Positions 25,337-25,935 of a stretch of DNA of 64,000 nucleotides are shown here, in pieces. The stretch's first letter is position 1. Each line of letters starts with the position of its first letter. A model generated the notes under the pieces. It did no database searches and was not told the origin of the DNA. It saw only the letters and a list, made by a program, of their open reading frames with translations. The position numbers were made by a program, and so were the translations under genes. This DNA comes from Escherichia coli O127:H6 str. E2348/69 (GTDB lineage Bacteria > Pseudomonadota > Gammaproteobacteria > Enterobacterales > Enterobacteriaceae): NCBI RefSeq assembly GCF_000026545.1, contig NC_011601.1. One strand, given 5' to 3'.

Positions 25337-25749
25337 TTACGGCAGTGGCGTCGGTAACGGCGCTTTATCCAGCGCGGCGGCACACTCTGCCGTCGGGCGA
25401 TCCACACGCTCCATCGTCATACCATCGTACTCAATGGTGTTACCGTCACGCTCAACCTCGTACAGCTCACGTTTTACGGTAACGTTAGTGAGATCATCAG
25501 ACATCAATGTCAACTTACCCGGCACGGCAATCACCCGCTGCCACTGACGGCAATCCAGGGTATCGCCCTCTTTAGTGACAATGAGGCTGCCTATCGCTTC
25601 CGGACTGACCAACGCACGTTGCGGCCCTTTGTCTGCCAGTAACCCGTCAGCCAGTCCGGCGCGGGGGTTTTCACGACATTGTTATAGTTTTCGACTTCGG
25701 CACAGCCCGCCAGCAACATGAGCGCACCTGCAATTGCGAGTTTTTTCAT
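25337..25749 (-). pseudogene. yedD: Lipoprotein YedD with a -1 frameshift near 25621-25630
   Basis: N-terminal frame from ATG 25749 reads MKKLAIAGALMLLAGCAEVENYNNVVKTPAPDW... (lipobox LAGC); the rest (…VSPEAIGSLIVTKEGDTLDCRQW…) is the separate track ORF 25337..25612 in another frame. Junction is in a ggg/cc run. Confidence 0.7.
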
Positions 25750-25935
25750 CATTCGTCCTGCATGAGAAGAAAAGAGGATTGTGGCATTAAAGCCCTGATG
25801 TCGCCAGCCTTTCCAGGCTCAGAGAGAAATTTGATCTAACCATTATTTTCGTGAATTATTACCCCGAAAATAAATTTGCATGGTGTATGATTCGCGACTC
25901 TTGTTTCAAACCTTCTGAGTTCAGAGGCTACATTC

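Follow-up and report, generated by a model that had tools for sequence, protein, structure and literature searches.

A single-base deletion in the lipoprotein gene yedD (lptY) of enteropathogenic Escherichia coli E2348/69

YedD/LptY and comparable systems

The lipoprotein YedD has recently been characterised as a subunit of the outer-membrane LPS translocon and renamed LptY (bioRxiv 10.1101/2025.04.10.648201). On purification, it is recovered in stoichiometric amounts with the LptD-LptE(-LptM) outer-membrane LPS translocon. The lipid-modified lipobox cysteine, C16, anchors it, and its 8-stranded barrel is lipocalin-like and contains a C67-C123 disulfide. [quoted passage not shown] In K-12, deleting lptY produces a visible effect only when the background is sensitised (delta-lptM with LptC overproduction, MacConkey agar; all from bioRxiv 10.1101/2025.04.10.648201). 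Binding of YedD to LptDE has also been found by native mass spectrometry in an independent study, in which AlphaFold predicted a contact with LptDE from no more of YedD than the 20 residues that follow its lipid-modified cysteine (PMC12065857). The solved YedD/LptY structures are 9fz5 chain C (9fz5_C) and 4hwm (4hwm_A).

We have analysed yedD in a 64-kb stretch of DNA from the E2348/69 strain, hereafter the window. The position of the gene between amyA and yedE-yedF is conserved, and the window shares with the YedD/LptY family (PF13987; the family of K-12 P31063) the locus amyA-yedD-yedEF, the signal peptide and the lipobox. When the window protein is conceptually repaired, it differs from K-12 YedD at 2 of 137 residues, and the intact phylogroup-B2-type allele of strain AVS0223 is one base apart from the window's yedD. 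In the family the barrel is in frame, whereas in the window the frame is broken at codon 40 and the barrel is not translated in frame. Thus, the window's yedD is a pseudogene of the PF13987 family and not a functional member.

Two other kinds of known system are close to this arrangement. The ordinary strain-specific pseudogenes of pathogenic E. coli, which PGAP labels 'frameshifted', likewise carry a single-base indel in genes that are non-essential and have not decayed further, and nothing material sets the window's yedD apart from them. The programmed -1 frameshift sites, such as those of dnaX and the IS3/IS911 transposases, share with it an X_XXY_YYZ heptamer in the zero frame and a functional continuation in the -1 frame. 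However, the site in the window has no stimulatory hairpin, pseudoknot, upstream Shine-Dalgarno (SD)-like element or conservation. We favor a genuine, very recent and strain-restricted one-base deletion that would make lptY a loss-of-function pseudogene, the loss being tolerated, and we put the probability of this explanation at about 92%. The lesion, its position, its recurrence across assemblies and its rarity are shown directly, while the loss of function, its tolerance and the absence of polarity are inferred.

One gene in two frames and the position of the missing base

The ORF listing and the translation of all three frames give two minus-strand ORFs that overlap, in different frames, within 25337-25752. 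The first (25591..25752, minus strand) encodes MMKKLAIAGALMLLAGC...KTPAPDWLTGYWQTKG, after which come 10 aberrant residues, RNVRWSVRKR, and a premature TAG stop at 25591..25593 (minus strand). The native part of its product is (M)MKKLAIAGALMLLAGCAEVENYNNVVKTPAPDWLTGYWQTKG. The second ORF (25337..25612, minus strand) has a TTG start and encodes 91 residues, (M)VSPEAIGSLIVTKEG...PLPTPLP. The original prediction, which was made from the letters of the window, had placed the signal-peptide frame and a 91-codon remainder in different frames, and the three-frame translation confirms this, with 52 or 53 codons in the signal-peptide frame and 91 in the C-terminal frame. The pseudogene as a whole occupies 25337..25749 (minus strand), exactly the bases that carry the PGAP label 'lipoprotein YedD, frameshifted'. 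It is 413 nt long, compared with 414 nt for the intact gene, and it would extend over 25337-25752 (minus strand) if the alternative upstream ATG at 25752 were used.

Both halves match the PF13987 (YedD) profile. The N-terminal piece matches at positions 1-20 with 26 bits, which is just below the 27-bit cutoff because the piece is short, and the C-terminal piece matches at positions 23-106 with 152.1 bits (E=5e-45). For comparison, intact YedD from a close relative scores 199.9 bits over positions 1-106. Since one profile match is divided between the two frames as 1-20 and 23-106, the ORFs are halves of one gene and not a chance pair.

The signal peptide and lipobox are intact at 25702..25749 (minus strand; MKKLAIAGALMLLAGC, lipidated Cys16). 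Direct translation of the window reads MKKLAIAGALMLLAG-C, with the cysteine at position 16, and the same is found in the intact AVS0223 allele. The out-of-frame remainder at 25337..25623 (minus strand) holds residues 43-137 of YedD/LptY, including the whole 8-stranded barrel with Cys67 and Cys123. This assignment is made from the translation, the PF13987 match and PDB 9fz5 chain C, to which the intact protein matches at 117 of 137 residues. The barrel and both cysteines are not in frame with the signal peptide, and the zero frame ends after codon 52.

The lesion was located by an alignment of yedD alleles, with those of strains AVS0223 and K-12 TG1 as the intact references. The original prediction had proposed such a comparison with related strains, and both alleles are indeed intact and one base longer at 25631. 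The intact sequence CAGACCAAAGGGCCG corresponds to CAGACAAAGGGCCG in the window, and the sole gap in 417 columns is that between intact CAG ACC AAA GGG CCG and CAG AC- AAA GGG CCG in the window. The deletion site is thus 25631..25631 (minus strand), where the window has a single C (plus-strand g) and the intact alleles have CC (gg). By the loss of one C, the Thr40 codon ACC becomes ACA and the frame shifts. The earlier identification of a yedD lipoprotein gene with a single-base frameshift is borne out by the PF13987 matches together with this alignment. Its location needs correction, since the frames were said to be joined around 25621-25630 (gcggccc), with the lesion in a G/C run, and the alignment puts the lesion one base outside this interval. 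The affected run is a doublet of 2 bases, CC, which is adjacent to the gcggccc run (25621-25627) and outside it. In sequence terms, the change looks like a plain single-nucleotide deletion, and a slipped-strand mechanism has little basis in a two-base doublet. The rest of the window's yedD is identical to the AVS0223 allele, the closest intact one, and shows no further decay. Thus, the deletion is recent, without subsequent decay.

Distribution of the deletion and its competing explanations

Over its full 64 kb, the window matches the reverse complement of positions 2018719-2082718 of NZ_CP059840.2 (E2348/69) exactly, with 0 mismatches. When complete E. coli genomes were searched with a 601-nt query, 5376 of 5426 proved to carry the locus, and the match to NZ_CP059840.2 was 100%. 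The deletion-spanning sequence, searched with a 70-nt query and a 31-nt probe (TTACTGGCAGACAAAGGGCCGCAACGTGCGT), is present exactly in 3 of the 5426, all of them E2348/69 or its derivatives, and the deletion is absent from the remaining 5423. The carriers are NZ_CP059840.2 (E2348/69), NZ_LT827011.1 ('EPEC E2348/69 variety 2', from the Sanger Centre via Imperial College) and NZ_LT903847.1 (a construct derived from variety 2), and PGAP labels yedD 'frameshifted' in all three assemblies. These complete assemblies come from at least two sequencing projects and, as a single strain lineage, count as independent runs rather than independent isolates. The exact 52-aa peptide is also found on about 50 contigs, which include NCBI drafts, ENA assemblies and Logan assemblies of raw runs. 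Their flanks, where compared, either are the same as in the window or carry 1 SNP in about 3 kb, with the exception of one contig (L010) that is described below. Separate assemblies share this deletion with draft contigs assembled de novo and with read-based contigs; it is thus a genuine mutation and not a sequencing error. The original prediction had offered either a sequencing indel or a genuine slipped-strand mutation; the genuine mutation is upheld by this repetition across assemblies and contigs, and the slipped-strand part is disfavored by the 2-nt run. In the genomes and contigs compared, the deletion does not occur outside E2348/69, its descendants or very close relatives.

Other yedD variants were seen in the course of these searches. 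The exceptional contig L010 (Logan ERR10497705, 1600-1640) has a separate 1-nt deletion, GGG to GG, located 5 nt downstream of the E2348/69 lesion. Its background is different (39 SNPs in 3.1 kb), and it encodes the same 52-aa truncated peptide by coincidence. Among the 5426 complete genomes, the probe search found 0 with this GGG to GG allele, which may be genuine or may reflect an error of read assembly. The other assemblies with a split yedD mostly drop a C from a C5 run at gene nt 79-83 (window about 25667-25671; loci L015-L021), and the contigs with these indels also carry fragmented neighbours (amyA or yedE). This suggests that the C5-run losses are a homopolymer error signature of long reads. 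The E2348/69 lesion lies outside the C5 homopolymer. Among the complete genomes, the C5 to C4 allele is found in 1 of 5426, that of 2013C-3181 (NZ_CP027312.1). A mutational hotspot at AAAGGGCC was considered and rejected on these counts of 0 and 1. We also rejected a second natural genotype with an insertion in amyA, as seemingly represented by two contigs, L009 (ENA ERZ761557) and L012 (Logan SRR1577786). At positions 2701-2716 of both, amyA is joined to E2348/69's own ycfT, which is about 850 kb away, and the junction is a 16-nt palindrome, GAGTAGAATTCTACTC, with an EcoRI site. This join almost certainly arose as an artefact of the library or of assembly, and it has the look of a linker-mediated chimera made during library construction.

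One alternative is recoding, in which -1 slippage would be frequent enough to supply functional wild-type LptY. The deletion makes a -1 slippery heptamer of the X_XXY_YYZ type, A_AAG_GGC, at 25624..25630 (minus strand). It lies exactly at the lesion in the zero frame (codons ACA AAG GGC), and a simulated -1 slip there restores a protein identical to that of the intact allele, residue for residue. Sharma et al. 2014 (PMC4066793) list A_AA.G_GG.C with the heptamers whose unstimulated frameshifting in E. coli exceeds 0.10%, but in the absence of a stimulator about 0.3% is the ceiling even for the best motifs. The 79 nt downstream have no folding advantage over shuffled sequence (z = 0.16), and no SD-like stimulator lies in the interval 6-17 nt upstream of the heptamer. 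With no stimulator, slippage is expected at about 0.1-0.3%. A trace of full-length LptY made in this way is plausible, and a functional amount is unlikely. The motif is also unconserved: the two-frame arrangement exists only in the E2348/69-derived genomes (3 of 5426), while relatives have one continuous ORF. The ancestral state is an ordinary ORF, and the arrangement is not a programmed frameshift. Programmed frameshifting was therefore rejected as the main reading, there being neither stimulator nor conservation, and we give a recoded, functional gene only a small chance. The heptamer is an accidental by-product of the deletion. Nevertheless, if slippage were well above about 0.1-0.3%, E2348/69 would carry a natural 'self-correcting' frameshift allele and would be an LPS-translocon hypomorph, not a null.

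The remaining explanations fare worse. An indel of sequencing or assembly, with yedD intact in the actual strain, would fit the fact that single-base indels are the commonest assembly error, and other assemblies do carry yedD indels. This is very improbable, however, given the identical deletion in three E2348/69-derived assemblies and in de novo Logan and ENA contigs built from reads; moreover, the run here is 2 nt, and the apparent artefacts elsewhere sit in the C5 run on contigs with fragmented neighbours. A phase-variable (contingency) switch operated by slipped-strand mispairing would likewise produce a 1-nt length change within a run of identical bases, and the separate deletion 5 nt away in the different background of L010 could be read in the same way. 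But the runs are 2 nt (3 nt in the L010 allele), far below known contingency tracts, and the locus has no long simple-sequence tract. Nor is there an ON/OFF mixture, since the deletion is limited to one strain (3 of 5426 genomes) and GGG to GG is found in none of the 5426, and the probability of such a switch is close to nil. Finally, the truncated 37-residue product could reach the outer membrane and have a new function there, for example by occupying LptDE like the short lipoprotein LptM. The start codon, signal peptide, lipobox and first 26-27 mature residues are all intact, and the LptDE contact in the AlphaFold study was modelled from only 20 residues past the lipidated cysteine (PMC12065857). 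Against this, the cryo-EM contact between LptY and LptD is made by the folded barrel on the beta-taco domain, and this barrel is lost here. In addition, the 10-residue tail is a by-product of the frameshift, and the allele shows no sign of spread (3 of 5426 genomes), so we regard a new function as highly unlikely.

Expected consequences and other disrupted genes in the window

With the tolerated one-base deletion as the preferred explanation, translation from the intact start would pass through the signal peptide and lipobox, would be correct to Gly42 and would then add 10 wrong codons before the stop at 25591..25593. The only efficiently made product would be a 52-residue prelipoprotein, which would be processed to a 37-residue mature lipopeptide of 26-27 native and 10 aberrant residues. 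This lipopeptide would have neither the lipocalin-like beta-barrel nor the two disulfide cysteines. Since these are absent, it should not bind the LptD beta-taco domain. Separate translation of the 91-codon ORF from its TTG was considered and rejected because the product, having no signal peptide, would be cytoplasmic and away from LptD. LptY is a non-essential accessory subunit of the LPS translocon, and this is probably why its loss is tolerated. A polar effect is not expected, since yedD is monocistronic, convergent with amyA and divergent from yedE. Between the convergent amyA and yedD, at 25309..25329, there is a GC-rich hairpin with a stem of 8 bp, 7 of them GC pairs. From this match to the consensus, it is likely to be a terminator shared by the two genes.

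As the prototype EPEC strain, E2348/69 is in wide use. The deletion would make it a natural lptY (yedD) loss-of-function mutant, so that results on its envelope, bile-salt response and antibiotic permeability would have been obtained without LptY, and lptY would be dispensable in a successful human pathogen. The yedD frameshift is already in the public RefSeq annotation, and it is a routine strain-specific pseudogene. The added interest is thus limited to the status of the prototype EPEC strain as a natural lptY mutant and to the accidental slippery heptamer, and the practical value is small.

The same 64-kb window contains further disrupted genes, namely dgcQ, araH and an invasin-like fragment. 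The dgcQ (yedQ) gene (42767-44460, minus strand) encodes a diguanylate cyclase that regulates cellulose synthesis and is also annotated as 'frameshifted' in E2348/69; its ORF pieces are 466 aa (43075..44475) and 142 aa (42767..43195). At the window edge (1-274 and 439-1050), a C-terminally truncated araH, the arabinose ABC permease gene, adjoins the transposase gene of an IS4-like ISEc13 element. The remnant of an 'invasin domain 3-containing protein' at 60466-61360 has a frameshift, an internal stop and both ends missing. It adjoins a tRNA-Asn gene and is possibly an island relic. A 141-nt integrase gene fragment, the remnant of a mobile element, lies at 28978-29118 between fliE and yedL.
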